A DNA stretch of 64,000 nt from Nannocystis bainbridge (GTDB lineage Bacteria > Myxococcota_A > Polyangia > Nannocystales > Nannocystaceae), in the NCBI RefSeq assembly GCF_028368995.1, contig NZ_JAQNDL010000005.1:480001-544000 (forward strand). Reading direction: 5' to 3'. The notes under the pieces are model-generated. The model searched no databases. It was given only the letters and a program-made list of their open reading frames with translations, and was not told the origin of the DNA. The first letter of the stretch is position 1. Every line of letters starts with the position of its first letter. Shown here one piece after another: positions 1 to 25,105 of this stretch. The translations under genes were made by a program, and so were the position numbers.

Positions 1-839
1 GCTATCGCGGGGACCCCACCGCCTCGAGCCTCGTCGCGGCCGGCGAGGTCGTGCTCGCCAAGCCGCTCCCGGATCTGCTCCTGTCGGGCAACGCCTACCC
101 CTCCGAGCCCGGCGGCACCATGGGACACGTCAGCTTTCGCGTCGGTGCCTGGTCCAAGGATGCGCTGGTCTTCGGCGACCGCACATGGACGCGCGGCGTC
201 ACCGGGCTCCGTCCTGCTGCTCCGCAGCCGTTCGAGACGATGCCGCTGATCTACGAGCGCGCGTTCGGTGGCGCCGACCTCGACGCACGGCCGCCGCTGG
301 AGTGCGCCGAGAACCCGGTCGGCGTCGGTCTCGTCGGTTGCCAGGCCGGAGCGCCGTTGCCCAACCTCGAACACCCGCATCACCGCCTCGAGGCGCCCGG
401 CGATCGCCCACCGCCGCGAGCCTTCGGCCCGATCGCCCCGCACTGGCAGCCGCGGCGGAGCCTCCACGGCACCTTCGATGCGGCGTGGCAGCGCACGCGT
501 CTGCCGCTGCCCCCGCTCGATGGCGATCCGCGCGCGGCCCAGGTCGCGCCGCCCGATCAGGTCTACCCGACGATGTTGCGGGGCGACGAGGAGGTCGAGA
601 TCCGCGGAGCCCAGCCAGGCGGCGCGTGGTTGACGTTTCGCCTGCCTTCGATGCACGTGCAGGTGATCGTCCACGACGGAAAACACCGGCGCGCCTTGCC
701 GACCGCCCTCGACACCCTGCACGTCGACGCCGAGGCGCGCCGCCTCGACCTGACGTGGCGCGCGAGTTTGTCGGTGCACGAGCGATTCGACGAGCTCGCC
801 TGGGTGCTTGTCGACTCCGCGGGAGGACCGAGTGTCTGA
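1..839 (+). CDS. DUF2169 family T6SS accessory/adaptor protein (5' end runs off the window)
   Basis: Frame is open from position 3 (YRGDPTASSLVAAGEVVLAKP). Motifs typical of DUF2169: 'LVFGDRTW', 'PFETMPLIYERAFGG', 'NPVGVG', 'LPNLE', 'FGPIAPHWQPR', 'LDTLHVD..LTWR'. Lies upstream of a thiolase-like gene and a DUF4150 gene. Confidence 0.9.
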   Translation, partial: YRGDPTASSLVAAGEVVLAKPLPDLLLSGNAYPSEPGGTMGHVSFRVGAWSKDALVFGDRTWTRGVTGLRPAAPQPFETMPLIYERAFGGADLDARPPLECAENPVGVGLVGCQAGAPLPNLEHPHHRLEAPGDRPPPRAFGPIAPHWQPRRSLHGTFDAAWQRTRLPLPPLDGDPRAAQVAPPDQVYPTMLRGDEEVEIRGAQPGGAWLTFRLPSMHVQVIVHDGKHRRALPTALDTLHVDAEARRLDLTWRASLSVHERFDELAWVLVDSAGGPSV

Positions 840-1881
840 CGAACGCCTGGTCGTGACCGGGGCGGGCATGCGCACGCCGGTGGGGACCAACGCGCCCGGC
901 ACGTGTGGGGCGCTCCGGGCCGGCATCTCGCGCCTGGCAGCCTGGCCGCACTTCGGCTTCGCCGGCGAGCCCCTGAACGTCGGGGCCGTCGCCGCCGAGC
1001 GGAAGGACGCGCCGTGGGTCGAGAAGGCGGTCCCGATCGTCTCACCGGCGATCCACGAGGCGCTCTGGCAGGCTGGGCTTTATGCGTATACGTGGCACCG
1101 GCGCCGCGTGGGGCTGTTCTTCTCGACGCCGTCGCCGACCCGCCCCGGGGTATTGCCCGAACGACTCGCCAACTTTCGCGCGTATGTCGGCGACCTCTGG
1201 GCCGAGCTCGCGGGCAACGACCTCGTTCACTACGTCGAGCAGGCGCACGTCGGCGGCGCGCTCGCGTTGGCCCACGCGTCCGAGGCCGTGGCGAAGGGCG
1301 AACTCGACGCCGCGGTGGTCGCCGGCTTCGAGTCGTATTTGGACAGCGTCTACCTCGACGAACTCCTGGGCGACGGCCGCCTGCTCACCGCCGATCGCTC
1401 CAGCGGCATCATCCCGGGCGAGGCCGCCGCAGCGCTGGTGATCGAGACGGCGGAGACCGCCCGTCGCCGTCAGGCTCCCGCGCTCGCCACGATCGCCGCC
1501 CTGGCGCTCGAGCAGGAGCCGACCGGCTGGACGCCCATGCGCCCCTCGCAGGCCGAGGCGCTCGCACGCGCGCTGCAGGGCGCCCTCGCGGCGGACCCGG
1601 GCGCCGCGTATCACACGATCATCGTCGACCACACGGGCGAGCGCTGGCGGCCGCGCGAGTGGGCCCTCGTCGAGCCCCGGGCGCTCGGCTCGCTGCCGGA
1701 GGATTGGGCGCTCTGGCACCCCGTCGAGGGCATCGGCGACGTCGGCGCGGCCTTCGTCCCCCTCGCGGTCGGGTGGGCGACCCAGGCGTTCGCCCGCCGC
1801 TACGCCGGCCCGGGAGGTATCCTGGTCGGCGCCATGAACGACACCGGCGAGCGGGCCATCGTCGCGCTCATGCCCCCCTGA
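832..1881 (+). CDS. Thiolase/beta-ketoacyl synthase-like T6SS accessory protein, probably non-catalytic
   Basis: GTG at 832 follows a GGAGG RBS and overlaps the DUF2169 stop. KAS-like motifs 'VVTGAGMRTPVG', 'LRAGISR', 'GIIPGEAAAALV', 'IGDVGAA'. The usual catalytic Cys position reads 'QAHVGG'. Confidence 0.85.
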   Translation: MSDERLVVTGAGMRTPVGTNAPGTCGALRAGISRLAAWPHFGFAGEPLNVGAVAAERKDAPWVEKAVPIVSPAIHEALWQAGLYAYTWHRRRVGLFFSTPSPTRPGVLPERLANFRAYVGDLWAELAGNDLVHYVEQAHVGGALALAHASEAVAKGELDAAVVAGFESYLDSVYLDELLGDGRLLTADRSSGIIPGEAAAALVIETAETARRRQAPALATIAALALEQEPTGWTPMRPSQAEALARALQGALAADPGAAYHTIIVDHTGERWRPREWALVEPRALGSLPEDWALWHPVEGIGDVGAAFVPLAVGWATQAFARRYAGPGGILVGAMNDTGERAIVALMPP

Positions 1882-1890
1882 GAACCACGC

Positions 1891-3309
1891 ATGCCCGCCA
1901 CGGTCATCATCAACAACCTCACCGTCGTTCACAAGCAGAGCGGCGGGACGAGCGTCGCGGCGCCCGACGTGTGCAAGACGCCGACGCCGAGCGGGCCGGT
2001 GCCGCTGCCGTATGCCAACACCGCGCTCTCCCGCGACGTGGCGAAGGGCGGCAAGCGGACCCGCATCGACGGTCAGCCGCCCGCGCTCAAGTCGAGCACG
2101 TTCTCGAGCAGCGCCGGCAACGAGCCGGGCTCGCTCGGCGGAATCATCTCGGGCAAGACGAAGGGCCGGGCGAAGCCGCGGAGCTACTCGCTCGACGTCA
2201 AGGTCGAGAACCAGCCGGTGGTCCGCTTCACCGACGTGATGGTCCAGAACGCCGGCGCCGCTCCGAACGCGACCGGCATCATCAGCCAGCCGAGCGGCGC
2301 GGCGACCGGCCTCGATCCCGACAAGGTCGAGGTCGTCGAGTTGCGCTGGTCCACGACGAAGCTGTGCTGCGGAGACCCCGTCACGCTGCACGTGGCGACC
2401 CAGAACGCCAAGGACGGCCAGCCCGTCCAGGTCTGGGCGCGACGCACCGATCCGAGCCGATGGACGACGATGGAGGGGCTCGCCGTCGAGGTCCACGGCA
2501 ACAAGGCCGAGGTGCCGTGGATCTCGCGCTGGCGCTTCAAGTTCCGCGAGAACATCCCGGCGGTCGCGGCCCAGGAGACGCTCAAGGGCGCGCAGAAGAG
2601 CAGCAACGCCCTGGAATTCCAGAACCCTCCCGCGCAGGCGAAGCAGACGATCCACGCAGCCACGCATTGGGCGTGGAAGTTCGTCTTCGACGACACGCTC
2701 CAGAAGTGGATCAAGAATGGCGAACACTACGCGTGGGAGGTCGCCTTCGACATCGCTATCGCCGACGGCTGGATGATCGTGCGCCGCGAGCTGGACTTCA
2801 ACCTCCGCTCGGGACAGGCGCCGGTAAGTCCGCTGACATGGCGCGCGTGGGCGCAGGAGATCGAGGCGGTGTGGGACCGCAAGTTCTACTTTCACCGCGT
2901 CGACTGCAAGCGAGAGCACCGCTGCGACTGCAGCCTCATAGGCTGCTGCAAGTATCCGCTGCGGATCTTCGCCAAGCAGGGCGCGGCCCACGGCGAGGTC
3001 GATCTGTTCGAGGGCGCGCCGCGGGCGAAGAATTGGGGCAAGCCGGATCTCTGGTGGTACTCGCACACGTGGTGGACGGAGCTCGGCGAAGCCAACGGCT
3101 ACGTGCGAGCGCACGAGTTCGGTCACCTCATCGGCTGCTACGATGAATACAAGGGCGGCGCCTGCCAGACCGGCGGTCATTGGGTCGGGGCCCCCAACAG
3201 CATCATGAACGACGGCAGGACCGTGTTCCCGCGGCACGTGGAGACCTTCCGCAAGATGTTCTCGGCGGCGAGCCCCGTCGTCGGCGCGGTGCGCACGGTA
3301 CGGGTTTAA
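1891..3309 (+). CDS. DUF4150 (PAAR-like, PIPY) spike-tip protein fused to a C-terminal HExxH zinc-metallopeptidase toxin domain
   Basis: N-terminus 'PDVCKTPTPSGPVPLPYAN...SAGNEPGSLGGIISG...SLDVKVENQPVVRFTD' is the DUF4150 signature. C-terminus has 'AHEFGHLIGCYDEY...SIM' (HExxH at about nt 3112). Confidence 0.85.
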   Translation: MPATVIINNLTVVHKQSGGTSVAAPDVCKTPTPSGPVPLPYANTALSRDVAKGGKRTRIDGQPPALKSSTFSSSAGNEPGSLGGIISGKTKGRAKPRSYSLDVKVENQPVVRFTDVMVQNAGAAPNATGIISQPSGAATGLDPDKVEVVELRWSTTKLCCGDPVTLHVATQNAKDGQPVQVWARRTDPSRWTTMEGLAVEVHGNKAEVPWISRWRFKFRENIPAVAAQETLKGAQKSSNALEFQNPPAQAKQTIHAATHWAWKFVFDDTLQKWIKNGEHYAWEVAFDIAIADGWMIVRRELDFNLRSGQAPVSPLTWRAWAQEIEAVWDRKFYFHRVDCKREHRCDCSLIGCCKYPLRIFAKQGAAHGEVDLFEGAPRAKNWGKPDLWWYSHTWWTELGEANGYVRAHEFGHLIGCYDEYKGGACQTGGHWVGAPNSIMNDGRTVFPRHVETFRKMFSAASPVVGAVRTVRV

Positions 3310-3321
3310 AAGGGTATCCCC

Positions 3322-4170
3322 ATGACCGATCTCCTCTGGCCTTTCAAACTTCACCAATCGATCCCCAGCTACTCGCGCGGCGAGCTCGGCGCATCGCTCG
3401 ACGCCGACGGCAGCTTCCATTTCTGGACGCCGGGTGTGATCCGCGGCCGCCCCGAGATCGGCTCCTACGTCCACGAGTTCCCTCCCCAGCGAGCGCTCGA
3501 CTTCCGCGCCATGGTCGAGCAGGCTGGGGTCTGGGACTTGCCGCGGCTCAAGGCCCTGCGGCCGGAGCAGCCGCACGTGTTCATGATGGCAGGCGCTTGG
3601 GAAGGCCCCAAGCGCTCGGTGATGTGGGCGATCGACGCAGTGCCCACCGAGGTCCTGCCGATCATGGACGCGTTTCACAAAATGGTCGACGAGGCGTTCT
3701 CCAGCCCACTCAAGGTGCTCGCGGGCGCCGCTCGCTGGACAGCGCCGAGCTTCTCGGCCCGCGACTTGTTCCAGCTCGAGCTCACCCTGAGCAACAAGGG
3801 GACCCAGCAAATCTCGCTGCAGGACCCGATGGGGCTCGATGCCCGCGGCTCGCTGCTGACCCTGCTCATCTCGCAGGTGCCGACCCGGGAGTTCCCGTCG
3901 CCGACACCGAACCGCGTCACCATCACGCCCCCGATGCTCTCCCGACCCGACCAGGCCCAGCCCCACGCCAAAAAGCCGCCAGGTTCGCGCCTCACGCTCG
4001 CGCCAGGCGAGTCGGTGCGGTTCGCCGTCTCGACCTCGGCTTTCCTGTCGCCAGCCGAGCACCGGGCGGTCCTGCTCCTCGACACGGGGGACAACGCGCA
4101 GACCCCGAAGGACCATGTGCGCGGCGTCCTCGCCATGGACATGCCGTCCGTCCACATTGTCCATCCGTGA
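3322..4170 (+). CDS. Hypothetical protein, putative cognate immunity protein
   Basis: 282-aa ORF starting 12 bp after the effector stop; no recognisable family. The immunity call rests on position only. Confidence 0.55.
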   Translation: MTDLLWPFKLHQSIPSYSRGELGASLDADGSFHFWTPGVIRGRPEIGSYVHEFPPQRALDFRAMVEQAGVWDLPRLKALRPEQPHVFMMAGAWEGPKRSVMWAIDAVPTEVLPIMDAFHKMVDEAFSSPLKVLAGAARWTAPSFSARDLFQLELTLSNKGTQQISLQDPMGLDARGSLLTLLISQVPTREFPSPTPNRVTITPPMLSRPDQAQPHAKKPPGSRLTLAPGESVRFAVSTSAFLSPAEHRAVLLLDTGDNAQTPKDHVRGVLAMDMPSVHIVHP

Positions 4171-4545
4171 GAATGCACGGACGCCCGTTCTCCACGACAG
4201 GTGCCCGCGTGGCGGAGAACTCCATCGGGTGAATCGAAATGCTCCGATCGCGGTGGGAGTGGCCCCTTCACGGGCGATTTCGTTCCCCTTGTGTACTGAA
4301 TGTCTCAAAGGACATGTGTCTCCCGCGACCTCGGCGCCGCGCACACGGCCACGCGCTGCGACCGCCTGTCTCGCTCGTGGAAGTCGCGCATCCGCGACAT
4401 CCGGGGATCGCGCGTCCGCTGACGCGTGGACAGAGGTCCGCCTCGCGCGCTCCGATCCCGATCGTCGGCGCTCGCCTTGTTGAGCGCGGACGCGCTTGCT
4501 AGGGTGGCGCCCGGGCCTCCTCGGCGACGAGGACGGGGGGATGCG

Positions 4546-6720
4546 GTGGAATCAGAGCTGCTGGTAGCGAAGATGATCGGGGGCAACTCGGCCCGCTTCG
4601 AGGTCGAGGGCTCGGTGAACCAGTACTTCGTGATCCGCTTCTCCGGCGTCGAGGCGGTCTCGGAGCTGTACGAGTTCCAGATCGAGGTCACCTCGCGCTT
4701 CGTCAGCGTCGACGAGTTGGTCGGCTCGCTCGCGCGGCTGCGGCTGGCCGGCATCGACCGCGCCCCGCGTGAGCTCCACGGCCTGATCTGCCGCGCCGAA
4801 TACGTCGGCGAGATGCCGCCGCGCTCGCTGTACAGAGTCACCCTCGTCCCCGAGCTGTGGCGCCTCAAGCTGCGCACCAACAGCCGGATCTTCCAGCACA
4901 TGTCGACCCCGGAGATCGTGACGGCGATCCTCGACGAATCGGGCATCCAGCACCAGCCACGCCTCGCGGCCTCGTACGCGCCGCGCGACTTCTGCGTGCA
5001 ATACCGCGAGAGCGACCTCGCCTTCGTCCGCCGTTTGATGGAGGAGGACGGGATCGCCTTCTACTTCGAGCACGGCGCCGAGAACCACACCCTCGTGCTG
5101 TCGGACATCCACACCGGTCACGCCAAGATCGAGGGCGACCCGAAGCTGCCCTTCCGCATCGACGAGCAGGTCCGCGGCGGCGAGCACGTCCGCAAGTTCT
5201 CGCTCGGCCAGCAGATCACCTCCGACGCCACGGCCGTCCGCGACTACGATCTGCACGCCTCGCAGGACATCGAGGCGCGCCAGGGCGCCGGCCGGCTCGA
5301 GCTGTACGACGCCCCGATCGGCGCGCGCGCGCCGGCCCACGCGACGGCGCAGGCGAAGATCCGCCTCGAAGAGGCGCGCGTGCCCGGGGTCGTCGCCACC
5401 GGCACCAGCGACTGCCCGCGGCTCGTCCCCGGCCACGCCTTCACGCTCGAGGGCCACCTCCGCGGCGAGCTCGACGGCGAGTACCACGTCCTGCGCGCGG
5501 TCCACCGCGGCGAGCAGCCGCGGATCGTCTATGCCGACGCCGAGCTGGTGTACGACAACGACTTCGTGGCGGTCCCGGTGGCCACGCCGTACCGCCCGCC
5601 GCGTCTCACGCCGCGGCCGACGATCCGCGGCGTGCAGGTCGCCACCGTCGTCGGCCCCGCCGGCGAGGAGATCTACGTCGACCCGCAAGGCCGCGTGAAG
5701 GTGCAGTTTCACTGGGACCGCAGCGGCCGGTACAGCGAGCTGAGCTCGTGCTGGGTGCGCGTCAGCCAGGCGTGGGCCGGCCCCGCCTACGGCTCGATGT
5801 TCATCCCGCGGATCGGTCACGAGGTGTTGGTCGAGTTCATCGAGGGCGACCCCGATCGACCGATCATCACCGGACGGATCTACGACGGCACCCGCGGCCC
5901 GCCGTACCCGCTGCCGGACGAGAAGACCAAGAGCACGATCAAGTCGGACTCGAGCCCCGGCGGCGGCGGCTTCAACGAGCTGCGCTTCGAGGACGCCAAG
6001 GGCGCCGAGGAGATCTACGTCCACGCCCAGCTCGACATGAACACCGACGTCCTGCGCGACGCCACCCGCGATGTCGGCCGCGACGACCACCTGACCGTCG
6101 CCAACAATCAAACCGAGGCCGTCGGCGTCGACCGCACCGCGTCCGTCGGCAACAACGAGACGATGACGGTCGGCCAGCACCAGACCACCACGATCGGCGG
6201 CGACCAGACCACCGTCATCGACGCCAACCAGACCACCACCGTCACCGGCGGCCAGGACACCGTCGTCGGCGGCGACCAGACCATCAGCGTGTACGGCCAC
6301 ATCCTGACCGCCGCAGCCGCCGACAACGCGCTGGCCGTCGGCGGCGACCAGCACGTGCAGATCCAGGGCCTGCGCACCCTCGAGGTCGGCCTCGACCAGC
6401 GCACCACCGTGCTCGGCAACATCACCTGCGACGTCGGCATGAGCGTCCAGGCCACGATCGGCACCGACGCGGTCGTCAACGTCGGGGCCAACCACTACCT
6501 GATCGTCGGCGGCGAGCGCTATGCAGCCGTCGGCGGCAACGACTCGGTGATCGCCGCCGGCGCCGTGACGATCTCGGCGGCGACCATCACCCTGACCGCC
6601 GGCGGCTCGGCGATCACCCTCTACCCCGGCGGCATCGACATCTCCACCGGGGGCACCGTCTCCATCAACGGCTCACTCGTCACCGTCAACATGGCGGCGA
6701 TGGGTGGCGGCCTGTTCTGA
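4546..6720 (+). CDS. vgrG: Type VI secretion system tip protein VgrG/TssI (start GTG 4546 or ATG 4573)
   Basis: 'FSGVEAVSELYEF', 'SRIFQ', 'FCVQYRESDLAFVRRLMEEDGI', 'GVQVATVVGPAGEEIYVD..GRVKVQFHWDR', 'SCWVRVSQAWAG', 'IPRIGHEV.V.F.EGDPDRP', 'FNELRFEDAKGAEEIYVHAQ', followed by 8-aa gp5-like beta-helix repeats (VGxDQTxT). Confidence 0.97.
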   Translation: MESELLVAKMIGGNSARFEVEGSVNQYFVIRFSGVEAVSELYEFQIEVTSRFVSVDELVGSLARLRLAGIDRAPRELHGLICRAEYVGEMPPRSLYRVTLVPELWRLKLRTNSRIFQHMSTPEIVTAILDESGIQHQPRLAASYAPRDFCVQYRESDLAFVRRLMEEDGIAFYFEHGAENHTLVLSDIHTGHAKIEGDPKLPFRIDEQVRGGEHVRKFSLGQQITSDATAVRDYDLHASQDIEARQGAGRLELYDAPIGARAPAHATAQAKIRLEEARVPGVVATGTSDCPRLVPGHAFTLEGHLRGELDGEYHVLRAVHRGEQPRIVYADAELVYDNDFVAVPVATPYRPPRLTPRPTIRGVQVATVVGPAGEEIYVDPQGRVKVQFHWDRSGRYSELSSCWVRVSQAWAGPAYGSMFIPRIGHEVLVEFIEGDPDRPIITGRIYDGTRGPPYPLPDEKTKSTIKSDSSPGGGGFNELRFEDAKGAEEIYVHAQLDMNTDVLRDATRDVGRDDHLTVANNQTEAVGVDRTASVGNNETMTVGQHQTTTIGGDQTTVIDANQTTTVTGGQDTVVGGDQTISVYGHILTAAAADNALAVGGDQHVQIQGLRTLEVGLDQRTTVLGNITCDVGMSVQATIGTDAVVNVGANHYLIVGGERYAAVGGNDSVIAAGAVTISAATITLTAGGSAITLYPGGIDISTGGTVSINGSLVTVNMAAMGGGLF

Positions 6721-6738
6721 GCATCGACCGGAGGACCC

Positions 6739-8856
6739 GTGCCCAGCAGAATCGACACCTCGGTCAACACCTCCTCCTCCACGGTCGTCGTCGACGTCCC
6801 CAGCACCGACATCCCGACCCGCCCGCGCGCGTCGTCGATGTCCGCGTTCGACCCCAACCGCCCCCCGCCGACGCAACCGCTCGGCGCGCCGACCTCCTCG
6901 CCGTCGCTCGCGCCTCCGCCCGGCGGCGGAACCCTGCCCCCGCTGGTCGGCGCCGGGACGACCGTCACCGTCCCCGCCGGCCCTCCGGCCCCCCGCGCTC
7001 GCGCCCAGAGCTGGTCGATGGGACAGACGGTGGGAGGCGGCGGTGCGCTGATCACCTTCGCGCGAACCCCCGCCCCCAGCGCGACCACCACGAGCTCCAG
7101 CTCCAACTCGACGACGAGCACCTCCAGCTCCTCGAACTCGAACCCCAGTTCGGCCTCGAACACCTCGAGCCCCACGGATTCCAACTCCACGACGAGCAGC
7201 TCCGACTCCACGACCTCCAGCTCGGCGACTACCACGTCCCCCGACCCGACCGTCGACGGTTCGAATCCATCACGACAGCCCCCGACCGTCCTCCTCCCCA
7301 CCACCACCACCACCACCACCACATCCGACCCGCTCCTCGGCGACCCATCGCAGCAGGCCCCGACGGTCGTCGACCCGCTCCCGCCCCCGCCGCAAAAGCT
7401 CCCGCCGAAGCCGTGGCCGAACCCCGACCGCCCGGACAAGCGCCACATCCGGCTGGCGACCGCGGGCATCAATACAAAGGCGAAAGGCGAGGGAACGGCT
7501 CACCGCAACGAGCTCGTCACGAACGCCCTCCAGGACCCCGACGACGTCACCGGACCGACGCGGAGCGACCTCGACTTCGTCGCCACGTCTTTCGAGGTGA
7601 TGCCGAGCCTCAACCTCAGAATGCGCACGGGCGTGCTCGCGGAGGCCCACCAGCGCCTCTTCAAGATCCGCGAAGCCCTGCACGGAAGGCGGCCGATCTC
7701 GGGGCTGGAGGACCTGCATGGATCGACCCTGAAGTGGGCCGACGGCGCGCTCGCCGAGGCCGACGCCACCAAGGATGTCGACCAGCGACTGGCGCAGCTC
7801 CGAGAGGCCTATCACTCGCTCCGCGAAGCCCACGCCCTCACCTTGCACGGAGAAGACCCCGACGCGGTGTGCGACTACCTCGACAAGTGCCTCGCCGAAG
7901 CCGAAGCCGACGCGGCGGCCGACCGCGCCCACTTCTCCGCGGTGTCGAGCAACCAGTCGGTGCAGAAGCTGTACGTCGCGCCCGAGTGGATGTTCCGCCG
8001 CAGCGCCGGCGCCCCCTACTCGACGGCGGAGTTCAAGCGCATCGCCGCGCGGGTCACGGCGATCAGCAACAAGTACCCCGACTGGCTGATCATCCCCGGC
8101 ACCGTCTATTACGGCGAGCCCATCGGCGACGGGAAGTTCTTCGTCCGCAACGAGGCGCTGGTCGCCCACGCCGGGGACCTGCGCGTGGTCAGCAAGCAGC
8201 ACGAGCAGGACGCCATGGCTGCGAACGAGGTGTGGTACCCGCGGCCGAACGAGTCGACGCGCTTCAAGGCCGGCGGCCACACGTACGCCGTCGAGATCTG
8301 CCGCGATCACTACAAGGCCATCGCGGCCGAGGAGTCCGACGACCTCGTCGATTTTCACGTGATCACCTCGAACGGGGTCGCCGTGGCGCCCCACGCGGTC
8401 GCCGCCCGCGACGGCGGCCTCGTCGTGCACGTCGACGGCCAATTCGGCGCGACGACCGTCTATCGCGTCCAGTGGCGCGAGAACCCGAACGCCGGCGAGG
8501 CCAAGGAATTCAGAGAGCGGGCCAGAGCAATGCGGCGAGAGATCACCGCGCTGGACATCGAGTGGACGGCCGGCAACGCCGAGGCGAGCAAGCTCCAGGC
8601 GCAGATCTCGCAGCGGAAGGCGAAGATGCGGCAGCAGGGCAAGTTCAACAAGGACGATGCCACGCTCAAACGGCTGGAGAAGCAACGCGAGGAGCTCGAC
8701 GACGCGGGCTGCAACATCATGCTGCGGCAGAAGGCGGTCAGCAACAAGCTCAACGCGGAGGCCGCGAAGTTCCTCGAGCTCGCGCCTATCTCCGGCGGCG
8801 ACGGGATCCAGATCCCCGAGAATCTCCTCGAGCTGGATCGGGACCGGTACGCCTAG
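6739..8856 (+). CDS. Putative T6SS cargo effector: S/T/P-rich N-terminus, carbon-nitrogen hydrolase (nitrilase-fold) domain, C-terminal coiled coil
   Basis: GTG preceded by a GGAGG RBS, 18 bp after vgrG. Motifs 'LYVAPEWMF' (E416), 'LIIPGT', 'VRNEALV', 'VSKQH' (K486), 'AVEICRDH' (C521) occur in nitrilase triad order and spacing. Confidence 0.7.
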   Translation: MPSRIDTSVNTSSSTVVVDVPSTDIPTRPRASSMSAFDPNRPPPTQPLGAPTSSPSLAPPPGGGTLPPLVGAGTTVTVPAGPPAPRARAQSWSMGQTVGGGGALITFARTPAPSATTTSSSSNSTTSTSSSSNSNPSSASNTSSPTDSNSTTSSSDSTTSSSATTTSPDPTVDGSNPSRQPPTVLLPTTTTTTTTSDPLLGDPSQQAPTVVDPLPPPPQKLPPKPWPNPDRPDKRHIRLATAGINTKAKGEGTAHRNELVTNALQDPDDVTGPTRSDLDFVATSFEVMPSLNLRMRTGVLAEAHQRLFKIREALHGRRPISGLEDLHGSTLKWADGALAEADATKDVDQRLAQLREAYHSLREAHALTLHGEDPDAVCDYLDKCLAEAEADAAADRAHFSAVSSNQSVQKLYVAPEWMFRRSAGAPYSTAEFKRIAARVTAISNKYPDWLIIPGTVYYGEPIGDGKFFVRNEALVAHAGDLRVVSKQHEQDAMAANEVWYPRPNESTRFKAGGHTYAVEICRDHYKAIAAEESDDLVDFHVITSNGVAVAPHAVAARDGGLVVHVDGQFGATTVYRVQWRENPNAGEAKEFRERARAMRREITALDIEWTAGNAEASKLQAQISQRKAKMRQQGKFNKDDATLKRLEKQREELDDAGCNIMLRQKAVSNKLNAEAAKFLELAPISGGDGIQIPENLLELDRDRYA

Positions 8857-8866
8857 TCATCCGGCG

Positions 8867-9838
8867 ATGAGGCTCTTCAACTACACGCCGTACCCGGCCC
8901 ACCTGCACCGCGGCTGCATCGAGGAGCGGCGCATGCTCGCCTGCGCCATGCTGCGCGTCACCTACGACGTCGTCGACGGCCGCCTGCGCCCCGCGGCCGA
9001 GCAGACCTGGCCGGTCTCGCCTGGCCCATGGGACAGCCCGTATGGTCCGCTGCCGGGCGACCAGCGGTACGTCCGCGGCGGCGTCGACGTCATGGTCTTC
9101 GGGTCCGCCCGCGCCGCCGGCGGCCGACCGGTGCCGAGCATCGACGTCGCCGTCGAGGTCGGCCCGCAGTGGCGCGCCCGGCTGGTCGCCTATGGGCCGC
9201 GCGTGTGGCAGCCCGGCCGCGCCGGCCTCGTCCCCGGCGCCCCCGAGCCGGTGCGCGAGGTCCCGCTGACGCTCGCGCGCGCGTATGGCGGCAAGGACAG
9301 GTGGGACGGCCTCGAAGTCCCGTACGTCGACAACCCCGACGGCAAGGGCTTCTACCTCGAGGAGTCGCGCGCCCGCGGCGGCCCGCTGCCCGAGCTCGAG
9401 GACCCCGACTCCCCGATCCGCGCGTGGGACGACCGCCCCGAGCCGGTCGGCGCCGGCGCGTGCCCGCAGCACTTCGGCCCGCGGGTGCGTCGCGGCGTCG
9501 AGCTCGACGACGAGGGCCGGCAGATCCGCCGGCTCCGGCCCGAATTCTTCAACGACGCCTTCCCCAGGATGATCGCGCCGCGCGCCGTGCCCGGCGACCG
9601 CGTCGTGATCACCGGCGTGCGCGAGGACGGCCCGCTCGCGTTCGTGCTCCCCGCCAACGACCTCCGCGTGCGCGTCGAGGTCGGCGACGACATCGGCGAG
9701 CGCACCCCCGCGATCGACCAGATCGGCGTCGAGGCCGACGCCCGCCGCGTCTTCGTCACCTACCGCTATTCCTTCGCCTACCGGCTGACGCCCCACCAGC
9801 GGCGCAGCTGCATGCTCGGGCTGGTCGAACCCGAGTGA
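8867..9838 (+). CDS. DUF2169 family protein (second copy)
   Basis: ATG at 8867 (MRLFNYTPYPA). Motifs 'DVMVFGSA', 'AYGPRVW', 'VPLTLARAYGG', 'NPDGKGF', 'LPELEDP', 'FFNDA'. Confidence 0.85.
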   Translation: MRLFNYTPYPAHLHRGCIEERRMLACAMLRVTYDVVDGRLRPAAEQTWPVSPGPWDSPYGPLPGDQRYVRGGVDVMVFGSARAAGGRPVPSIDVAVEVGPQWRARLVAYGPRVWQPGRAGLVPGAPEPVREVPLTLARAYGGKDRWDGLEVPYVDNPDGKGFYLEESRARGGPLPELEDPDSPIRAWDDRPEPVGAGACPQHFGPRVRRGVELDDEGRQIRRLRPEFFNDAFPRMIAPRAVPGDRVVITGVREDGPLAFVLPANDLRVRVEVGDDIGERTPAIDQIGVEADARRVFVTYRYSFAYRLTPHQRRSCMLGLVEPE

Positions 9839-9848
9839 GGAGCGCGCC

Positions 9849-10910
9849 GTGTTCGCTGTGATGAAGCACTTCGACGTGATGCTCGGCATCGACCTGCACA
9901 TCTGCTGGCCGCCGCCCGCGCCCAAGCCGATCGGCCCCAAGCCGTACCTCACGATCATGCTGCTGCACGGCCTCCAGCCGCTGACGCCGATGATGGCGCC
10001 CTCGTGCCTGACCCTGGCCGGCATGACGATGCAGCGCGGCACCGACATCGGCCCGGGGATCCCGCACATCGGCCCGGCGAGCAAGCTGACCCCGATCGAC
10101 GTGCTGTTCAGCTCGTCGATCTCGTACTTCGGCCCGTCGACGTACGCCGCCGAGGCGATGCCGGTCGCGGCCGCGCTGGCGATGGGGATCAACATCAACG
10201 CCAACTGCTGGCACGTCGGCCCGATCCCCTCCGGGATCGTGATCTGCCCGACGACCCACTTCACAGGCATGACGCCCTTGGACATCCTGTTCGGCGTCGT
10301 CAGCTACGGCGTCGACTTCGCCTTCGAGGCCGCGACCGACAAGCTCGCCGATGTCCTCGGCCCCGCGCTCAGAAAACACGTCATCGGTCCGATCAGCGAC
10401 AAGCTGACGGCCAAGCTGGCCTCGAAGTCCGCCGCCGACGTCGCCGGCGGCGCGTCGGCGAAGACCGCGAGCGAGGCCGCCGGCAAGGCCTCCCCGCAGC
10501 TCGGCGCCCAGCGCCGCACCGGCCCCGCGGCGGGCCCGGCCACAGGCCCACGGCCCCCCGGCAAGACGCCCATGGCACGCCCCGCCGGCGCCCCGACGCT
10601 CGCCGCGCACCGCTCCCCGCCGGCGCGCCCGCGGACGCCTGCGGGGCCGAGCAGGCCGCCTCCGCACGTCTGGAAGCCCGGCAAGCCGAACCCGCAGCAG
10701 CGCCCGACGGGCCGCCCGACGCTCGGCGACCACCGCGTCCCCGACAAGGGCCCGAGCCTGTGGGAGATCTACCGCGACGTCGGCTACGACGCCCTGATCG
10801 AGCTGCTGCTCGAGGTGCCGATGGCGATCCCGCAGCAGTTCGTGGCGGACCTCTTGCCCTTGAGCGGCATCGAGGAGTTCGGCGCCCCGCGCGACGAGCA
10901 GGACGGCTGA
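9849..10910 (+). CDS. Stand-alone PAAR-like spike-tip protein with a Pro-rich tail
   Basis: GTG after a GAGGAG RBS. N-terminus 'KHFDVMLGIDLHICWPPPAPKPIGPKPY...RGTDIGPGIPH' resembles the 'AKHFDPV.GIDIH' PAAR-like N-termini of Rhs proteins. No Rhs core follows. Flanked by two DUF2169 genes. Confidence 0.6.
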   Translation: MFAVMKHFDVMLGIDLHICWPPPAPKPIGPKPYLTIMLLHGLQPLTPMMAPSCLTLAGMTMQRGTDIGPGIPHIGPASKLTPIDVLFSSSISYFGPSTYAAEAMPVAAALAMGININANCWHVGPIPSGIVICPTTHFTGMTPLDILFGVVSYGVDFAFEAATDKLADVLGPALRKHVIGPISDKLTAKLASKSAADVAGGASAKTASEAAGKASPQLGAQRRTGPAAGPATGPRPPGKTPMARPAGAPTLAAHRSPPARPRTPAGPSRPPPHVWKPGKPNPQQRPTGRPTLGDHRVPDKGPSLWEIYRDVGYDALIELLLEVPMAIPQQFVADLLPLSGIEEFGAPRDEQDG

Positions 10911-10913
10911 CCG

Positions 10914-12080
10914 ATGGGACATGTGCTTTCCGCCCCCTGCGACACCGCCGTCCAGCTGTCGGCGCCGCGCCCTGACGGCGAGTGGACGCTGACGCTCCTC
11001 GCCCGGCGCACCTACGAGGTCGACGGCGCCGGCCGTCTCGCGCCCGCGCCCGCGCAGCCCGGCCTGCGACCGACGCCCGAGTGGGACCCCGCCGACCCCG
11101 AGCGGCTGGTCGCCGACATGGACCTCTTCACCCACAAGCTGCGCACCGACCTCGTCGTACGCGGCCACGTCCACGGCGATGGCAAGGCCACGCGGCTGAC
11201 CGCCGAGGTGACGGTCGCCGGCCGCTCGCACCGCCTCTCGGTGTTCGGCGAGCGCCGCTGCACCCTCGACCGCACCGGGCGGATCGTCGTCTCCGAGCCG
11301 ACGCCGATCGAGCGCGTCCCGCTGCGTTACACCCACGCCTACGGCGGGCGCGACGCCACCTACGAGGCGACCCACGGCAACCCGCTGCGCCACGACCCGC
11401 GCTGGGCCGGCATGACCGCGCCGCAGATCGACGCCGCCTCGCCGTACCTGTACCCGCGCAACCCGTGCGGCCGCGGCTACCTGATCGAGGCCACGCGCGA
11501 CGCCGTCGACCGGCTCGCGCTGCCGCAGCTCGAGGATCCCACCGACCTGTTGAGCCCGACTCGCCTCACCGTCGGCGACTTCAAGGCGTGGTACCGCATG
11601 CCGCTGCCCCAGGGCACCGACTGGATCGACTACGGCTGGTACCCGCGCTGCGCCTTCTTCGGCGTGGTCCCGATCTGCAAGCGCTTCACGTCGCCGCCGG
11701 CCGAGGTCGTCCGCCAGCTCGTCCCGCCCGAGCTCGCCCCCGGCGACGGCAAGACGCTGGCGAACTTCCCCTTCGAGGCCGCGAGCGGCGCCTCGCTCCC
11801 CTTGCAGCTGCCGCACCTGCGCGGCGGCGAGCCGGTGGCGCTCGTGCACATCCACCCGCAGCGGCCGCGCTGGGAGCTCACGGTCCCGTTCGCACCCGCG
11901 CTCGCGGTCGACGCTCGTGACGGCACGGTCAGCCCGGTCGAGCCGGTCCTGCACACCCTGGTCCTCGAGCCCGACGTCGGCCGACTGACCGTCATATGGC
12001 GCGGCTCGGCCCCGGCGCTGCGCCGCTACCTGCCGCAAGAGCTGGCCACGATGCCGATGCGCGTCGCCTGGCGCGACTGA
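10914..12080 (+). CDS. DUF2169 family protein (third copy)
   Basis: 'ARRTY', 'HKLRTDLVVRGH', 'VFGERR', 'VPLRYTHAYGG', 'YPRNPCGRGY', 'LPQLEDP', 'LHTLVLEPD..LTVIWRG'. Confidence 0.88.
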   Translation: MGHVLSAPCDTAVQLSAPRPDGEWTLTLLARRTYEVDGAGRLAPAPAQPGLRPTPEWDPADPERLVADMDLFTHKLRTDLVVRGHVHGDGKATRLTAEVTVAGRSHRLSVFGERRCTLDRTGRIVVSEPTPIERVPLRYTHAYGGRDATYEATHGNPLRHDPRWAGMTAPQIDAASPYLYPRNPCGRGYLIEATRDAVDRLALPQLEDPTDLLSPTRLTVGDFKAWYRMPLPQGTDWIDYGWYPRCAFFGVVPICKRFTSPPAEVVRQLVPPELAPGDGKTLANFPFEAASGASLPLQLPHLRGGEPVALVHIHPQRPRWELTVPFAPALAVDARDGTVSPVEPVLHTLVLEPDVGRLTVIWRGSAPALRRYLPQELATMPMRVAWRD

Positions 12081-12145
12081 CCGCCAGCGCGACGCGGGAG
12101 CCCGACGATGCGTCGTGGTCGCGACGGCGATATCGACTGCGATGA

Positions 12146-12604
12146 TTACTGTGCAGCGAGCTCGGCCTGACGCGCCAGGTCCGGGATCGCCTCGAGGTGG
12201 GTCACGCGGTGGCGGCGGTCGAGGAACCACAGGTAATGCGAATAGAAGAGCCCCTGGTAATGCGGCGAGTGCAGGTGGCGGCTGGTGTCGGCGTTGCGGT
12301 GGTGGCGGCGGTGCGTCTCGGCCCACCAGATCACCCCGCCTGCAGGGTCGTGCTGCCGAGCAGCGCCAGCAGGAACTGGAACGGCCGCGACGTCTTGAAC
12401 GCGCGGTGGGCGAAGTAGCGGTGGAACTGACCGTCAGCGCGAACATCCGCGCCGCGAAGCAGGCGGCGAACAGCGCGAACGCCGGCCACGACAGCCCGGT
12501 GACGACCACCCCGAGGCACAGCGCGTGGACCAGCAGGTAGAAGCCCGCCGCCGACCACGAGAGCTGCGCCAGCGCAGCGAACCCTTGCCCCGGTCGTCTC
12601 GCAT
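12146..12604 (-). pseudogene. Acyl-CoA (delta-9) fatty acid desaturase pseudogene (about 3 frameshifts, C-terminal half missing)
   Basis: Joining minus-strand frames gives 'LLVHALCLGVVVTGLSW..RMFALTVS / FHRYFAHRAFKTSRPFQFLLALLG / VIWWAETHRRHHRNADT..HSPHYQGLFYSHYLWF'. His boxes 1 and 2 are present; box 3 is absent. ATG at 12604 has a GAGG upstream. Confidence 0.85.
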
Positions 12605-12691
12605 CACCTCAGCTCCCGGCCGCCTCGAGCGGCCCCGCGTCGCCCGGGCGCACCGCCGGCAGCGGCGCCCCCGGCCGCCACTTGCGGTCGT

Positions 12692-12987
12692 GGCGTTCGC
12701 CAGCCCCCGCAAGGTGCTCGCGGGCGCCGCTCGCTGGACAGCGCCGAGCTTCTCGGCCCGCGACTTGTTCCGGCTCGAGCTCACCCTGAGCAACAAGGGG
12801 ACCCAGCAAATCTCGCTGCAGGACCCGATGGGGCTCAATGCCCGCGACTCGCTGCTGACCCTGCTCATCTCGCAGGTCCCGACTCGGGAGGTCCCGTCGC
12901 CGGCACCGAACCGCGTCACCATCACGCCCCCGATGCTCTCCCGCCCCGACCAGGCCCAGCCCCACGCCAAAAAGCCGCCAGGCTCGC
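12692..12987 (+). repeat. 296-bp near-identical direct copy of 3693-3988 (internal part of the putative immunity gene)
   Basis: Sequences align at a constant offset of 8999 bp with few substitutions. Both translate to 'KVLAGAARWTAPSFSARDLF.LELTLSNKGTQQISLQDPMGL...HAKKPPGS'. Confidence 0.95.
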
Positions 12988-13611
12988 TCAGCGCGCGGGC
13001 AGCGAGGCCACGAGCTCCTGTGTCGTGACGATCGCGTGGGCGTACGTCGGCCCGTTGATCTCGTGGGCCGCGCGCATCGCCTCCTCGGACATCGCCGCGG
13101 TCGCGTCCTTGACGAGGGTCACGTGGTAGCCGAGCTCGACCGCGAACCGGCTCGTGCATTCGATGCACGTGTTGGCGATGAGGCCGACCGCGATCACCCG
13201 CGCGATGCCGTGCTGCTTCAGCAGCATGTCGAGGTCGGTGTTGGCGAACCCGCTCGAGCCCCAGTGCTCCTTGACGACGATGTCGCCCGGCTGCGGCGCG
13301 AAGTCGGGGTGCCACTCGCCGCCCCAGCTGCCCCTGGCGAACACCTGCGTGCGGGCGGCGTTCTGCTGGTACGGGTTCGCGCGCTGCCAGCTCTCGAGGT
13401 CGCCCGGCTCCCAGCGGCGGTGCGGGACGATGAAAACGCGGATCTTCGCGGCACGGACCGCCGCGACCACCGCCCGCAAATTGTCGAGCAGGCCGACCTT
13501 CTCGGCCACGTCGCGGAGACGCGGCCAGACCTTCCCGCCCTCCGAGAGGAAGTCGTTGTACGGATCGACGAACAGGAGCGCGGTTCTTTCGGCGGGGTAC
13601 GAGTCGGTCAT
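12988..13611 (-). CDS. Isochorismatase family cysteine hydrolase
   Basis: 'TALLFVDPYNDF', 'VVKEHWGSSGFANTDLD..LKQHGI', 'GLIANTCIECTSRFAVELGY'. Confidence 0.93.
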   Translation of the reverse strand: MTDSYPAERTALLFVDPYNDFLSEGGKVWPRLRDVAEKVGLLDNLRAVVAAVRAAKIRVFIVPHRRWEPGDLESWQRANPYQQNAARTQVFARGSWGGEWHPDFAPQPGDIVVKEHWGSSGFANTDLDMLLKQHGIARVIAVGLIANTCIECTSRFAVELGYHVTLVKDATAAMSEEAMRAAHEINGPTYAHAIVTTQELVASLPAR

Positions 13612-15603: not shown

Positions 15604-18600
15604 TCAAACGGCGCGACGGCGCCGGCGCAACGCCAGGAGGGGCAGTGCCAGCCCCGCGAGCCAGCCGCCGCGGGGATCGGCGACGCAGCCGCAGCCGGTC
15701 TCCGCGCCCGCGCTCATGCCTCCGGAGTCGGACTCGTCGCTCGAAGTACCGGTCGGCTCGTCGGGGCCGGTGGTCGGGTCGGCGGGACCGCCCGTCGTGG
15801 GCTCGTCCGGATTGGGCATGCAGACGGCGGCATCGTCGACCCACCGCGGGAAGGGAGCGTCGACGATCCCCTCGAAGCGGAAGTTGTCGAGCGTCCACCC
15901 GGGGGCGCTGAGGACCGTATCGGTGGCGAGCCGGAAGCGAATGCGCATGGTCAGGCCGGCCAGCATCGTGCCGAAGTCGAGGACGACGGGGTTCATCTTC
16001 GGGTAATCCGGGCTGGTCTTGACGAAGGCGTAGCGCTTCACGAGCGGATTATCGCTGGCGACGATCGTGCCGTTGTATCCGATGTCGCCGACGACCTTGG
16101 TAGCGTCTTGCCAGGTCTCGCCGTCGTCGTCGGACAGCTCGATGACGCCGCCGTCCCATGCGTAGCCGCCGTAGGCGTCGAAGGCGTACGCGTGGTCGAA
16201 GGCCAGTGTGAAGTCCTGGTCTTCGGCGACGGTGAAGGCCGGCGAGACGAGGGCGGCGTCGGTCGGCGCGCCGCGGTCCCTGCCGTGCCAGACGTGGCTG
16301 TCGGGCCCGGACTCGCGTGCCCACACCAGCGAGCCGTCGTCGCCGGTGAGCGTCCAGGCAGCGGCTACCTCGACGTCGTCCTCGCTCGCGCCGGTGAGCG
16401 CTGCGTCGGCCTGCACCGTCGCATGCAAGAGCTGCTCGGCCGGCGACTCGCACCCGCCGGGCGTCGTCAGTCGCACGCGCAGCGCCACGGGCGTGGGCTC
16501 GGTCATGCCGGCGTCCAGCGCCACGGGGATCGCCCCCGTGCCGGCCTGCTGCGGCCCGAGCTCGGGCAGGGCGAACACGGGCCCGTCGGGGAACACCAGG
16601 CCCGGCGGCGGATCGACGATCTCGACCGTCGCGCCGGCGAGCGGGACGGTGCCGCCGTTGTAGACCTCGAACGCGAGGCGACCGATCTCGCCGTCGTCGA
16701 GGATGCCGTCCTCGTCGCACGAGAGGATGCTGTCGTCGAGGGTCGCGCCGAGCAGCACGCCGCGGCCGCGCAGCTCGTAGTCCTCGACCACGTGCTCGAG
16801 GGTCGTCGAGAACTTGGGCGGTGACTCGGCGCAGCTGCCCGCGCCGCGGTCGGCGAAGGCCGCGGCGACGGCGAGCATGTCGGCCTCGCTGGTGGCGGCG
16901 ATCGCCATGAGAATCGCGTCTCGCTGCTCGGTGAAGGTCGGCTCGAACGGCGCGAGCATCATGCCGGCGACGACGTAGTCCGACATCCTGCGTCGGACGG
17001 CCTCGAAGCCGAGGTCGTCGGCGTGGAGCTCCTGCAGCGCGACGTAGCTGTCCCACAGCATCTCCGCCCACACCTGCCCGGCGTTGTGCTGCTGACTGTT
17101 GGGGTAGCCGTTCGGGCTGAACAGCGGACCCTCGGGCAGGAGCACGTCGTCGCCGATGTGGCGGAACGTCAGCGGGTTGATGGCGAAGTCGGTCGAATAG
17201 ACGTACTGGCGCCCGTTGAAGAACTGGGTCGGGTCGATCGAGGCCCAGGGCGCGTAGTTGAGGGTCCCGTGGAGGTCGTCGCCCTCGCGGACGCTCATCA
17301 ACATCGCGTTGAAGTCGCCCCAACCCTCGCTCTCGGCCAGGCAGGTCCGGCTGCCGCACTCGACGAGGCGAACATGCAAGAAGTGGCCGAACTCGTGCGC
17401 GATCATCAGCGAATCGAGGCCGGCATCGCGGGTGGGGCCCTGCTCCGCGGCCATGTGCACGGTGAGCTCGGGGCCCGCGAGCGCAGCCTTGAGGGCGTCA
17501 CCGTCGGCGAGGGTGATGCCGACGGTCGGGATGGTGGGGTTCATGATCGAGGGATCTTCGATGGGCACCAGCGGCTCGGCGGCCGCGACGTCGTCGGCGA
17601 TCAGCACCCCGACCGCGCCGGCGGTCCGGGCGCGATGGACCTGGGTCTCGAAGGCGCACTCGCCCCGGTCGACGAGGACGATCTTGCCCTTCACGTCGTT
17701 GACCGGCGCCTCGCAGCCGTCGCTGGTGCTCGCGCCGACACCATCGTCGCAGAGGACCAGCGGCGCGGTGAGGTCGTAGGCCACGGGCCCGAACTCGGCG
17801 ACCTGCCCGTCGAGCGCCAGGCCCAGCGGCTCCACCGACAAATCGCCGAGCGTGCTGAGCCCCTCGAACAGGCGCAGCCGCAAGCGCGGCGACACGCCGT
17901 CGAGCGTGAACGACATGCTGGCGTTGTTGCGCAGGCCGCTCTGCCACCCGTTCAGGTTCTCGACCAGCATCGGATCGCCGTCCTCGCCGCCGCGCCCGTA
18001 GTTGTCGAGCTGCGCGTTGCCGGTCGCCTCGACCAGGCCCGAGTCGTACCACCAGTCGTGCTGCCAATTGGTGACGTAGAAGGCGTGCGTCAGCGCGGCC
18101 ATGAGCTGATCCTCGCTGGCCGTGGCCGCCTGCGTGAAGTCATAGGTGCGATCGAACACGCCTGGGTCCGTGACGGTGGCACGAAAGCGGTTCTCGACCG
18201 GGTCCGGGTCCAGGGAATCGGTGTAGGCGTCGACGTTGTTGCCGACGGTCTGGGTCGCGTTCGCGGGCAGCCACGGATCGGGGACGCCCTCGGGGTTGGT
18301 GTTGAGGCCCTCGACCATGACGAGCGCGGCGTCCGAGTAGCCGTCCGGGACGACGCCGGGGACACCGGTCGGGTGGGGGTTGAAATCGGCGAGCGGACCG
18401 TCGAGCGGCCGACGATCGCCGGGATCGGCGTACACTCGATACTGATGGGCGTGATGGGTGCCGTCGTGGCGCATCAACAGCCGGTCGTCGTCGGCGGCGA
18501 CGACGTATTGAAAGACATCGTCGCGGGCCCCGAGCCGGGTCTGCAGCTCGACGAGGTAGGCGGCGACGAGGACCTCGCCGAGCGGGAAATAGACCGGCCG

Positions 18601-19260: not shown

Positions 19261-19513
19261 GCGCAGCAAGCTATCCGCTGGGGCGCGTCGCAGCCGATCG
19301 TCCCCGACCCATTCACGGCTTCACTGCAGTGACTTGAGGATTCGCGCGCAGGCAACGATTTCTCCGCATCGTGGATAGCGGGCACCTGGACAGCCGCTCC
19401 TCGAATTACGAGCGAACACGCCGCCGGCGCGCGCGGCCCGCACCGGTCGTCGGTGCGACGGGGCGGTCATCGCACGAGCCTGTGTTTGCCCACATGTGGG
19501 TGAAGCCCACGCA

Positions 19514-24793: not shown

Positions 24794-25105
24794 GCGGGCC
24801 CCAGCGTACACCCGCGTCGCCGGACCCGTCGCCTGCGCACGCGCCGCTCGCAGCGAGCGCACGGCAGACCCCCGCCAGCGAGCCCCCGTGCCGCCCAGCC
24901 ACATCGCCCCGACCACCCGCCACATGCTCGCTCGCCCGCCCCCACAATCACTGCCCGCCCGACCTCGTGCCCGCATCGCCGCGACGGCCGGACCCCGCGG
25001 CCATCACGAGCCCCGATCTAACCGGTACTTTCGGACATGCCCCTCGGGACAGCTCATTCCTGATTTTGACCGCGCCCGCCGCGGGCGGTACGCTCGCGCC
25101 CCCGC

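Follow-up and report, generated by a model that had tools for sequence, protein, structure and literature searches.

Toxins of type VI secretion systems (T6SSs), extracellular contractile injection systems (eCISs) and type VII secretion systems (T7SSs) are a main source of new cell-killing enzyme activities. Several secreted toxins attack C-N bonds, e.g. Tse8, the Tae peptidoglycan amidases and the papain-fold glutamine deamidase toxins (PF15644). Glu-Lys-Cys is the catalytic triad of the nitrilase (CN-hydrolase) superfamily, and a domain of this superfamily serves as a cell-killing conflict effector in the reverse transcriptase-nitrilase anti-phage systems DRT1 (UG1) and UG5/DRT11. In this work we describe a gene directly behind vgrG, the T6SS spike gene, in a 64,000-nucleotide stretch of the Nannocystis bainbridge genome (contig NZ_JAQNDL010000005.1, positions 480,001 to 544,000; hereafter the window). 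Its 705-residue product, which we call the effector, is in our judgement likely to be a modular T6SS cargo toxin with an amidase warhead of the nitrilase superfamily, and a member of a broad and unnamed family of toxin domains.

We take the folds and catalytic machinery of Tse8, the Tae amidases and the PF15644 toxins to be unlike those of the effector, and none of them to be a nitrilase-superfamily protein. Tse8 is classed as an amidase-signature family protein. The DRT1 and UG5 nitrilases are fused to a reverse transcriptase and act inside the producer, whereas the effector is predicted to be exported cargo. According to one report, the nitrilase domain of DRT1 is an abortive-infection effector with a substrate that is not known (PMC13275509). 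A link to these defence nitrilases is unsupported at the level of hidden Markov models (HMMs): none of 21 family members, the effector included, matches a nitrilase-type PADLOC model, and the only PADLOC matches were weak ones in helical regions (LmuB, ZorG, JetC). No reverse transcriptase was seen among the scanned neighbours of the effector and its relatives. A first-pass annotation, made by a model from the sequence alone, had proposed the gene as a new class of T6SS effector. The literature within reach of our search, with paywalled papers and supplements outside it, describes no T6SS, eCIS or polymorphic-toxin effector of nitrilase fold, and to that extent the novelty stands; a nitrilase that kills is not unprecedented, however, since DRT1 and UG5 do so inside cells.

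The features of the effector gene and protein are as follows.

6739..8856, plus strand: effector gene, 705 amino acids and a stop codon, from the list of open reading frames (ORFs), the translation and the G+C content of third codon positions (GC3)
6728..6733, plus strand: ribosome-binding site GGAGGA, 5 nt ahead of the GTG at 6739, from the sequence
6739..7440, plus strand: N-terminal low-complexity region rich in S/T/P/G (residues 1-234), proposed to serve in loading or tethering
6922..7047, plus strand: conserved stretch in the low-complexity region, residues 62-103, from alignment with the toxins of congeners G005 and G003
7012-7026, plus strand: WSMGQ, residues 92-96, inside the conserved stretch
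7441..8787, plus strand: predicted nitrilase-superfamily (CN-hydrolase-like) catalytic domain, residues 235-683, with two insertions, from AlphaFold2, Foldseek, VIA, hhalign and profile searches
7489..7947, plus strand: clade-specific helical insertion that separates strand 1 from the strand bearing the Glu, residues 251-403, from the second model
7984..7986, plus strand: codon of E416, predicted catalytic Glu in a VAPEW motif, aligned with the canonical PE Glu
8194..8196, plus strand: codon of K486, predicted catalytic Lys, aligned with the canonical YRK Lys
8299..8301, plus strand: codon of C521, predicted nucleophile in an [E/D]-I-C-x-D-H motif, aligned with the canonical ICYD Cys
8494..8763, plus strand: antiparallel helical (coiled-coil) hairpin ahead of the last strand, residues 586-675, from the model

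The case for the fold is made by models and profiles. AlphaFold2, run with a 90-sequence alignment, returned a predicted local distance difference test (pLDDT) score above 90 over the core, and the modelled domain has the four-layer alpha-beta-beta-alpha sandwich of the nitrilase superfamily. In a second model, beginning at residue 225, the first strand is found at 235-241 (HIRLATA, pLDDT about 90), the Glu and the Lys follow strands at 407-413 and 480-485, C521 sits at the strand-to-helix turn after strand 514-520, and the last strand is at 679-683. Foldseek matched the model to AmiF, Nit3, amidases and NadE (E 1e-6 to 3e-5, probability 1.00). In an exhaustive VIA-align search the top 24 rows were all nitrilase-superfamily chains (Z 13.1-17.0, 200-228 residues aligned), and the rows below them were helical hairpins only (Z <=11.4). 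No branch of the superfamily comes out clearly ahead, with Z at 13-17 for all. The family profile found two NAD+ synthetase glutaminase domains in the PDB (E 4.5e-5 and 1.2e-4) with the Lys and the Cys aligned, and hhalign of the family with six canonical CN_hydrolase domains of the same genome gave a probability of 96.5% (E 7e-10).

The catalytic residues agree with this picture. In hhalign the invariant E, K and C columns of the six canonical domains coincide with E416, K486 and C521. In the alignment of 90 relatives C521 is present in 90/90, E416 in 88/90 and K486 in 85/90, and the residues around the cysteine are nearly as constant: an acid (E or D) at C-2 in 90/90, D at C+2 in 87/90 and H at C+3 in 80/90. 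The E-K-C pattern is, to judge from conserved columns that match the canonical triad, not a matter of chance. The first-pass annotation had read E416, K486 and C521 from VAPEWMF, SKQ and EICRDH, motifs that begin at residues 413, 485 and 519; its positions proved exact. It had also asked for a structural check of the fold, which Foldseek and VIA on the models and hhalign on the triad columns bear out. Its outline of the protein needs to be redrawn. It had put forward residues ~400-580 for the structural comparison, but the nitrilase-like fold already starts with strand 235-241; its separate helical segment does exist, but as an insertion inside the enzyme domain (251-403); and its terminal coiled coil is the hairpin at 586-675, which is not a tail, as strand 679-683 follows.

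How does this domain compare with canonical C-N hydrolases such as Nit2, AmiF, the aliphatic amidases and the NAD+ synthetase glutaminase (PF00795)? The predicted fold and the E-K-C positions are the same, as is the placement of the Cys at a strand-helix turn. The effector differs in an extra 150-residue helical insertion and a 90-residue hairpin insertion, in a disordered 235-residue N-terminus, in its T6SS context and in the family motif [E/D]-I-C-x-D-H with its invariant acid at C-2. In the second model the pLDDT of the helical insertion is mostly 34-69 to about residue 370 and higher beyond; the insertion is found in P0006-P0008 and is missing in short relatives, e.g. P0041. The two hairpin helices (586-632 and 641-675) have pLDDT values above 90 and also occur in P0005, P0007 and P0008. 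E497, a candidate for the second Glu of a catalytic tetrad, is invariant in the five closest sequences.

Single-sequence searches do not recover this relationship. The effector alone has no family match in Pfam or NCBIfam, and a word-indexed protein search returned only the effector itself. The PDB sequence search gave only weak matches of the low-complexity part to Fab light chains (best E 0.25), which we reject. A genome-wide PF00795 search found seven canonical CN_hydrolase genes elsewhere, the effector not among them, and the family HMM run on the same genome found the effector and, beyond it, two canonical CN_hydrolases at E 3e-4 and 9e-4. In the ESM Atlas 30/30 nearest clusters are unnamed; the nearest named one is CN_hydrolase in 15% of its members (score 0.89), which we treat as a lead only.

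The second line of evidence is the position of the gene, which stands in an operon of vgrG and adaptor genes in a T6SS-bearing genome.

4426..6720, plus strand: vgrG spike gene, given as the longest ORF; the part conserved in congeners begins near residue 42
8867..9838, plus strand: DUF2169 adaptor-family gene b (DUF2169 5.5e-53)
9849..10910, plus strand: P0154, a conserved gene of 353 amino acids between two DUF2169 genes, with no Pfam match
10914..12080, plus strand: DUF2169 adaptor-family gene c, the end of the operon (DUF2169 5.9e-51)

We compared the syntenic loci of four congeneric genomes (G001, G003, G005 and G007), which were found via P0154. All four keep a VgrG 72-74% identical to that of the effector locus, a DUF2169b that is 68-72% identical (70-72% in the three read whole) and a DUF2169c that is 55-65% identical, and in all four the vgrG-DUF2169 locus adjoins tssC. 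What lies between vgrG and DUF2169b varies. In G001 the slot is empty, with a gap of 46 nt. In G005 it holds a 474-aa protein with an ADPrib_exo_Tox match (E 1.5e-9), in G003 a 452-aa protein with the same match (E 1.4e-5), and in G007 a related 287-aa ORF (E 2.1e-8), the 5' part of which matches in another frame. As the slot is empty in one congener and occupied by an unrelated toxin in three others, the effector gene looks to be dispensable, interchangeable cargo. Each of the three ADP-ribosyltransferase genes is followed by a conserved small ORF (86-101 aa, 51-84% identical) that is likely to be an immunity gene. These cassettes are located as follows.

L048, 9451-11096: ADP-ribosyltransferase cargo and small ORF
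L049, 9391-10970: ADP-ribosyltransferase cargo and small ORF
L050, 6853-8424: ADP-ribosyltransferase cargo and small ORF

The effector and the ADP-ribosyltransferase cargo thus share a locus, its neighbours and an N-terminal region with WSMGQ; they differ in that their predicted warheads are unrelated and that the 86-101-aa ORF is found only behind the latter. Read at full length, the G005 and G003 proteins have a similar N-terminus of ~240 residues, rich in S/T/P/G/Q. Alignment with the effector reveals invariant columns at G62, G64, L69, G71, A80, P83, W92-Q96, G99, G100 and A103. WSMGQ is the sole 5-mer common to the three N-termini, and any common 5-mer arose in 148/20000 shuffles. A complex prediction with three copies of VgrG 600-764 and effector residues 50-125 scored 0.00 against a mark of 0.32 and, run without controls, gives no verdict. 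Judged from these comparisons, the cargo at this locus is interchangeable: the N-terminal module stays the same and the putative warhead changes. Both the exchange with other toxins and the shared, presumed delivery region are what one would look for in T6SS cargo. The earlier suggestion that the gene behind vgrG encodes a cargo effector gains support from this polymorphic slot and the shared N-terminus.

A third line of evidence comes from other genomes. An exhaustive HMMER search with effector residues 245-705 found at least 282 representatives of the nitrilase-like domain at E <= 0.001, with 23 at <= 1e-10; the matches span residues about 375-590. The hosts belong to Myxococcota, Bacteroidota, Actinomycetota, Chloroflexota, Planctomycetota and Pseudomonadota, and include one archaeon. 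The family is sparse, with members in 4/401 genomes of a phylum sample (N. bainbridge included) and in 3/41 relatives searched with a single-protein query. A scan of metagenomes for close relatives turned up a single contig of 3 kb, whose gene context was of no help. Wherever a source name was looked up, the member was called 'hypothetical' or was named after another of its own domains.

Neighbours, though not every ORF, were scanned in 18 loci of relatives; the homologue itself was missed in L012, L022 and L023. In three loci, L008 (Polyangiaceae), L009 (Byssovorax) and L026 (from a congener), the first or second gene upstream encodes a DUF4123 T6SS adaptor, and in L026 the nitrilase-like domain is inside a 1715-aa immunoglobulin (Ig)-domain protein. 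In L011 (Litorilinea) the domain forms the C-terminus of an eCIS_core protein, in a locus with tube, spike, gp25 and baseplate J genes. L015 adjoins conjugation genes; the L016 protein, from an archaeon, has 228 aa and stands alone.

A Pfam scan of 78 of the 150 listed representatives places the domain in further company. Two of them, P0079 and P0128, carry eCIS_core, P0128 being apparently the L011 protein. Two actinobacterial proteins, P0036 and P0119 (2800 and 2872 aa), have an N-terminal WXG100_2 domain and a Gln_amidase papain-fold glutamine deamidase toxin domain, and P0036 also has a DXD glycosyltransferase region. The 4818-aa protein P0009 likewise shares the deamidase domain PF15644 with the nitrilase-like domain. 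These three giants come from Krasilnikovia, Streptomyces and Catellatospora. DXD glycosyltransferases and glutamine deamidases are typical of host-directed toxins. In one survey DUF4157/eCIS_core is a signature of eCIS toxins, occurring in 36% of them and in 0.06% of other proteins (PMC11297309). In the pattern of a polymorphic toxin, one predicted domain is carried by different trafficking modules and systems (eCIS_core, WXG100_2, DUF4123 and vgrG). The first-pass annotation had asked whether homologues lie near secretion genes; the DUF4123 adaptors, the eCIS locus and the fusions to toxin-trafficking domains answer that some do.

Two other recurrent contexts were seen among the relatives. 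In two unrelated loci, L009 (8503-8991) and L014 (2274-3287), the gene immediately upstream of the nitrilase-like one encodes a PG_binding_1 protein, which in L014 has LysM as well. L007 and L013, both from Lewinellaceae, have a conserved block in which the nitrilase-like gene is accompanied by genes for a ricin-lectin protein and a DUF6603 protein of ~1500 aa.

The gene model itself is well supported by the sequence. The ORF starts with GTG, 18 nt past the vgrG stop codon (6718-6720), and GC3 in its frame is 0.82-1.00 over the full length, the S/T/P-rich first ~235 residues included; we conclude that the low-complexity part is coding because GC3 stays at this level. The gene-caller version of the effector has 411 aa and omits the N-terminus. 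It probably starts too late, the long form being favoured by composition and by the ribosome-binding site. At a window G+C of ~70% spurious ORFs are many, among them an Arg-rich ORF of 1337 aa in another frame (4857-8870), which overlaps the effector and is an off-frame artefact, and a minus-strand ORF (6621-7472) with a high GC3 that merely mirrors the coding frame. The ATG of DUF2169b, at 8867, is 10 nt past the effector stop codon, which leaves no space for a small ORF behind the effector, and the translated N-terminus has no hydrophobic signal-like stretch. On all of these points, i.e. a real gene directly behind vgrG with no signal peptide, followed by DUF2169 instead of a small immunity ORF, the first-pass annotation was right, and its reading of an amidase-type effector is supported by the agreement of predicted fold, triad columns and T6SS context.

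That the effector is loaded on VgrG, secreted and toxic is our inference, as are its chemistry, its substrate and the organism it targets, and we propose the following mechanism. The disordered, S/T/P-rich N-terminus of ~235 residues, with the 62-103 stretch and its WSMGQ, would tether the effector to VgrG or to accessory proteins, and the toxin domain (residues 235-683, nitrilase or C-N hydrolase superfamily) would be injected into a target cell. There the nucleophilic attack of Cys521 would fall on the carbonyl of an amide (C-N) bond in a molecule of the target cell, with Glu416 as the base and Lys486 stabilising the intermediate, and the resulting thioacyl-enzyme would be resolved by water. 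The C-x-D motif presumably points to an amidase or deamidase, and C-W-E would mark a true nitrilase. How might this be toxic? Our first guess is the destruction of an essential amide-bearing metabolite or cofactor, our second is protein deamidation and our third is action on an amide or acyl group of the envelope. If true, a nitrilase warhead adds thiol-dependent cleavage of non-peptide amides, an activity missing from current effector lists. The question of the substrate is the same as for the DRT1 and UG5 nitrilases, and a soluble, single-domain, secreted version could be the easier handle on it. The locus is also a natural swap experiment, with one delivery scaffold and two unrelated predicted warheads, of which only one comes with a candidate immunity gene, so that both the proposed N-terminal motif for loading and the question whether immunity is needed are directly testable.

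Several observations weigh against this reading. No immunity gene adjoins the effector, which is unusual for an antibacterial T6SS effector, and the small ORF linked to the ADP-ribosyltransferases of the congeners has no match in the effector's own genome. No injection-system gene was seen in 14/18 of the scanned loci, which means that the domain family is not made up of secreted toxins alone, and the 18 loci do not include those of the four closest relatives (P0005-P0008). The Pfam CN_hydrolase cut-off of 23.2 bits is reached neither by the effector nor by any of the 78 relatives scanned, the best of which score 21.4 and 15.7 bits. The second Glu of the tetrad is not clearly conserved; the E497 column has E in 24/90 sequences and is one column off in hhalign. 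Finally, the loading role proposed for WSMGQ is based on three sequences.

Which cells would such a toxin act on? The evidence on immunity bears on this question. In 4/18 loci the nitrilase-like gene is translationally coupled to a gene for a helical domain of ~110 residues, which belongs to a family without a match in Pfam.

L004, 7741-8100: small helical ORF, upstream of the nitrilase-like gene
L005, 9080-9445: small helical ORF, upstream of the nitrilase-like gene
L006, 9026-9502: small helical ORF, upstream of the nitrilase-like gene
L008, 11151-11504: small helical ORF, downstream of the nitrilase-like gene

This partner looks like an immunity protein or a chaperone and, if it is, would imply that the toxin can harm its producer. 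No copy of it is found within the window. Elsewhere in the genome of N. bainbridge five ORFs (contigs C1 and C2) carry the domain, in 1-2 copies per ORF, and one of these (C1:1784405-1785379) is about 1 kb from a vgrG match (C1:1786326-1787234).

One reading, quite possible in our view though short of probable, is that the effector is aimed only at eukaryotes (predators, prey or fungi) and that its substrate is absent from the producer, so that no immunity gene is needed. It would explain why none adjoins the effector, whereas the ADP-ribosyltransferase cassettes of three congeners bring their own conserved small ORF, and it fits both the domain's fusion to eCIS_core in an eCIS locus and its company of DXD glycosyltransferase region and glutamine deamidase in the actinobacterial giants. 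It sits badly with the self-toxicity that the helical partner of L004, L005, L006 and L008 would imply, and with the fact that DUF4123-linked effectors are mostly antibacterial. To the same tentative degree the effector may instead be antibacterial, its immunity encoded elsewhere or made needless by a different target in the producer. The five helical-domain ORFs would be candidates for the former, and the 13 vgrG and 3 tssC matches of the genome suggest heavy use of T6SSs between bacteria; against this, nothing ties any of the five to the effector, and the link of helical ORF to nitrilase-like gene holds in four loci only.

Put together, a more speculative and rather doubtful synthesis would be that a widespread, undescribed amidase warhead of the nitrilase superfamily is deployed by T6SS, eCIS and WXG100/T7SS-type systems, here on a swappable scaffold with a new loading motif (WSMGQ), and without immunity as its substrate, e.g. 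a eukaryote-specific one, is absent from the producer.

The chemistry could also differ from that of an amidase. Thioacyl-enzyme chemistry is the same across the nitrilase superfamily, and the structural matches include the apolipoprotein N-acyltransferase Lnt (8aq2, Z 13.1; Foldseek E 3.1e-5), which leaves some room for an acyltransferase that modifies an amine of the target. We consider this improbable, as Lnt is the last of the 24 superfamily rows, the effector model is without a membrane domain, and soluble amidases and Nit proteins score higher, though the differences in Z are small. Least likely of all is that the protein is no toxin but a T6SS accessory enzyme or scaffold (e.g. one that processes a spike component or a co-effector), or a metabolic C-N hydrolase near vgrG by chance: this would suit the lack of an adjoining immunity gene and the loci of relatives without recognised secretion context, but not the slot that is empty or filled by other toxins in congeners, the N-terminus shared with those toxins, the occurrence of the domain in multi-toxin proteins and eCIS_core fusions, or the seven canonical CN_hydrolase genes that serve metabolism elsewhere in the genome.

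We return to the toxin reading with the wider surroundings of the effector. The VgrG protein has Pfam matches to Phage_GPD (4.2e-77), Gp5_trimer_C (7.6e-44) and Phage_base_V (1.2e-15), and TssM, TssL, TssF and a TssB/TssC ORF are encoded about 17-30 kb upstream on the same contig. Behind DUF2169c there is no convincing coding signal in 12080-12988. In one study DUF4123 and DUF2169 are adaptor markers of T6SS effectors, and the ketoacyl-synthase-like class PRK06147 is a proposed fourth T6SS adaptor that is often found beside DUF2169 (Liu et al., PMC7714669). The genes upstream of vgrG are listed here.

51-839: DUF2169 gene, cut by the window start (DUF2169 1.1e-73)
808-1881: ketoacyl-synthase-like gene, PRK06147-type (ketoacyl-synt 4.4e-6)
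1891..3309, plus strand: PAAR-like (DUF4150) toxin with a C-terminal HExxH region, HEFGH (Tox-PAAR-like 6.2e-32)
3322-4170: ORF of 282 amino acids behind the PAAR-like toxin

The interval 51-4170 is a second effector module, with a metalloprotease-like HEFGH, and its 282-aa ORF may be the immunity gene of the PAAR-like toxin.

P0154 has a conserved N-terminal part of ~190 residues that is rich in His, Cys and Trp; behind it come an Ala/Pro-rich linker and a short tail, which is conserved too. In a search of 25 related genomes it has relatives in 5/10 congeners, usually in two copies. Its profile finds nothing in the PDB sequences, and a role as a PAAR-like cap is unsupported (hhalign to the PAAR-like toxin of the window, 0.3%). 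The 357-aa and 353-aa genes that adjoin DUF2169 genes are not related to each other. P0005, a close relative of the C-terminal half of the effector, and P0177, which is related to P0154, agree in the length listed for their longest contig (2142 nt) and in the type of source; they may be on one contig, which would link the effector and P0154 families directly.

Two further observations concern the rest of the window. Proteins of the SUKH-1 (SMI1/KNR4) family often serve as immunity proteins of polymorphic toxins, and a SUKH-1 domain joined to a WGR domain is encoded at 38171-39721, at a distance of 30 kb from the effector. On the minus strand, 15604-19269 encodes an M36 fungalysin of 1221 aa that has a PA domain, and 21653-24976 an FG-GAP repeat protein of 1107 aa; both are large proteins of secreted type.

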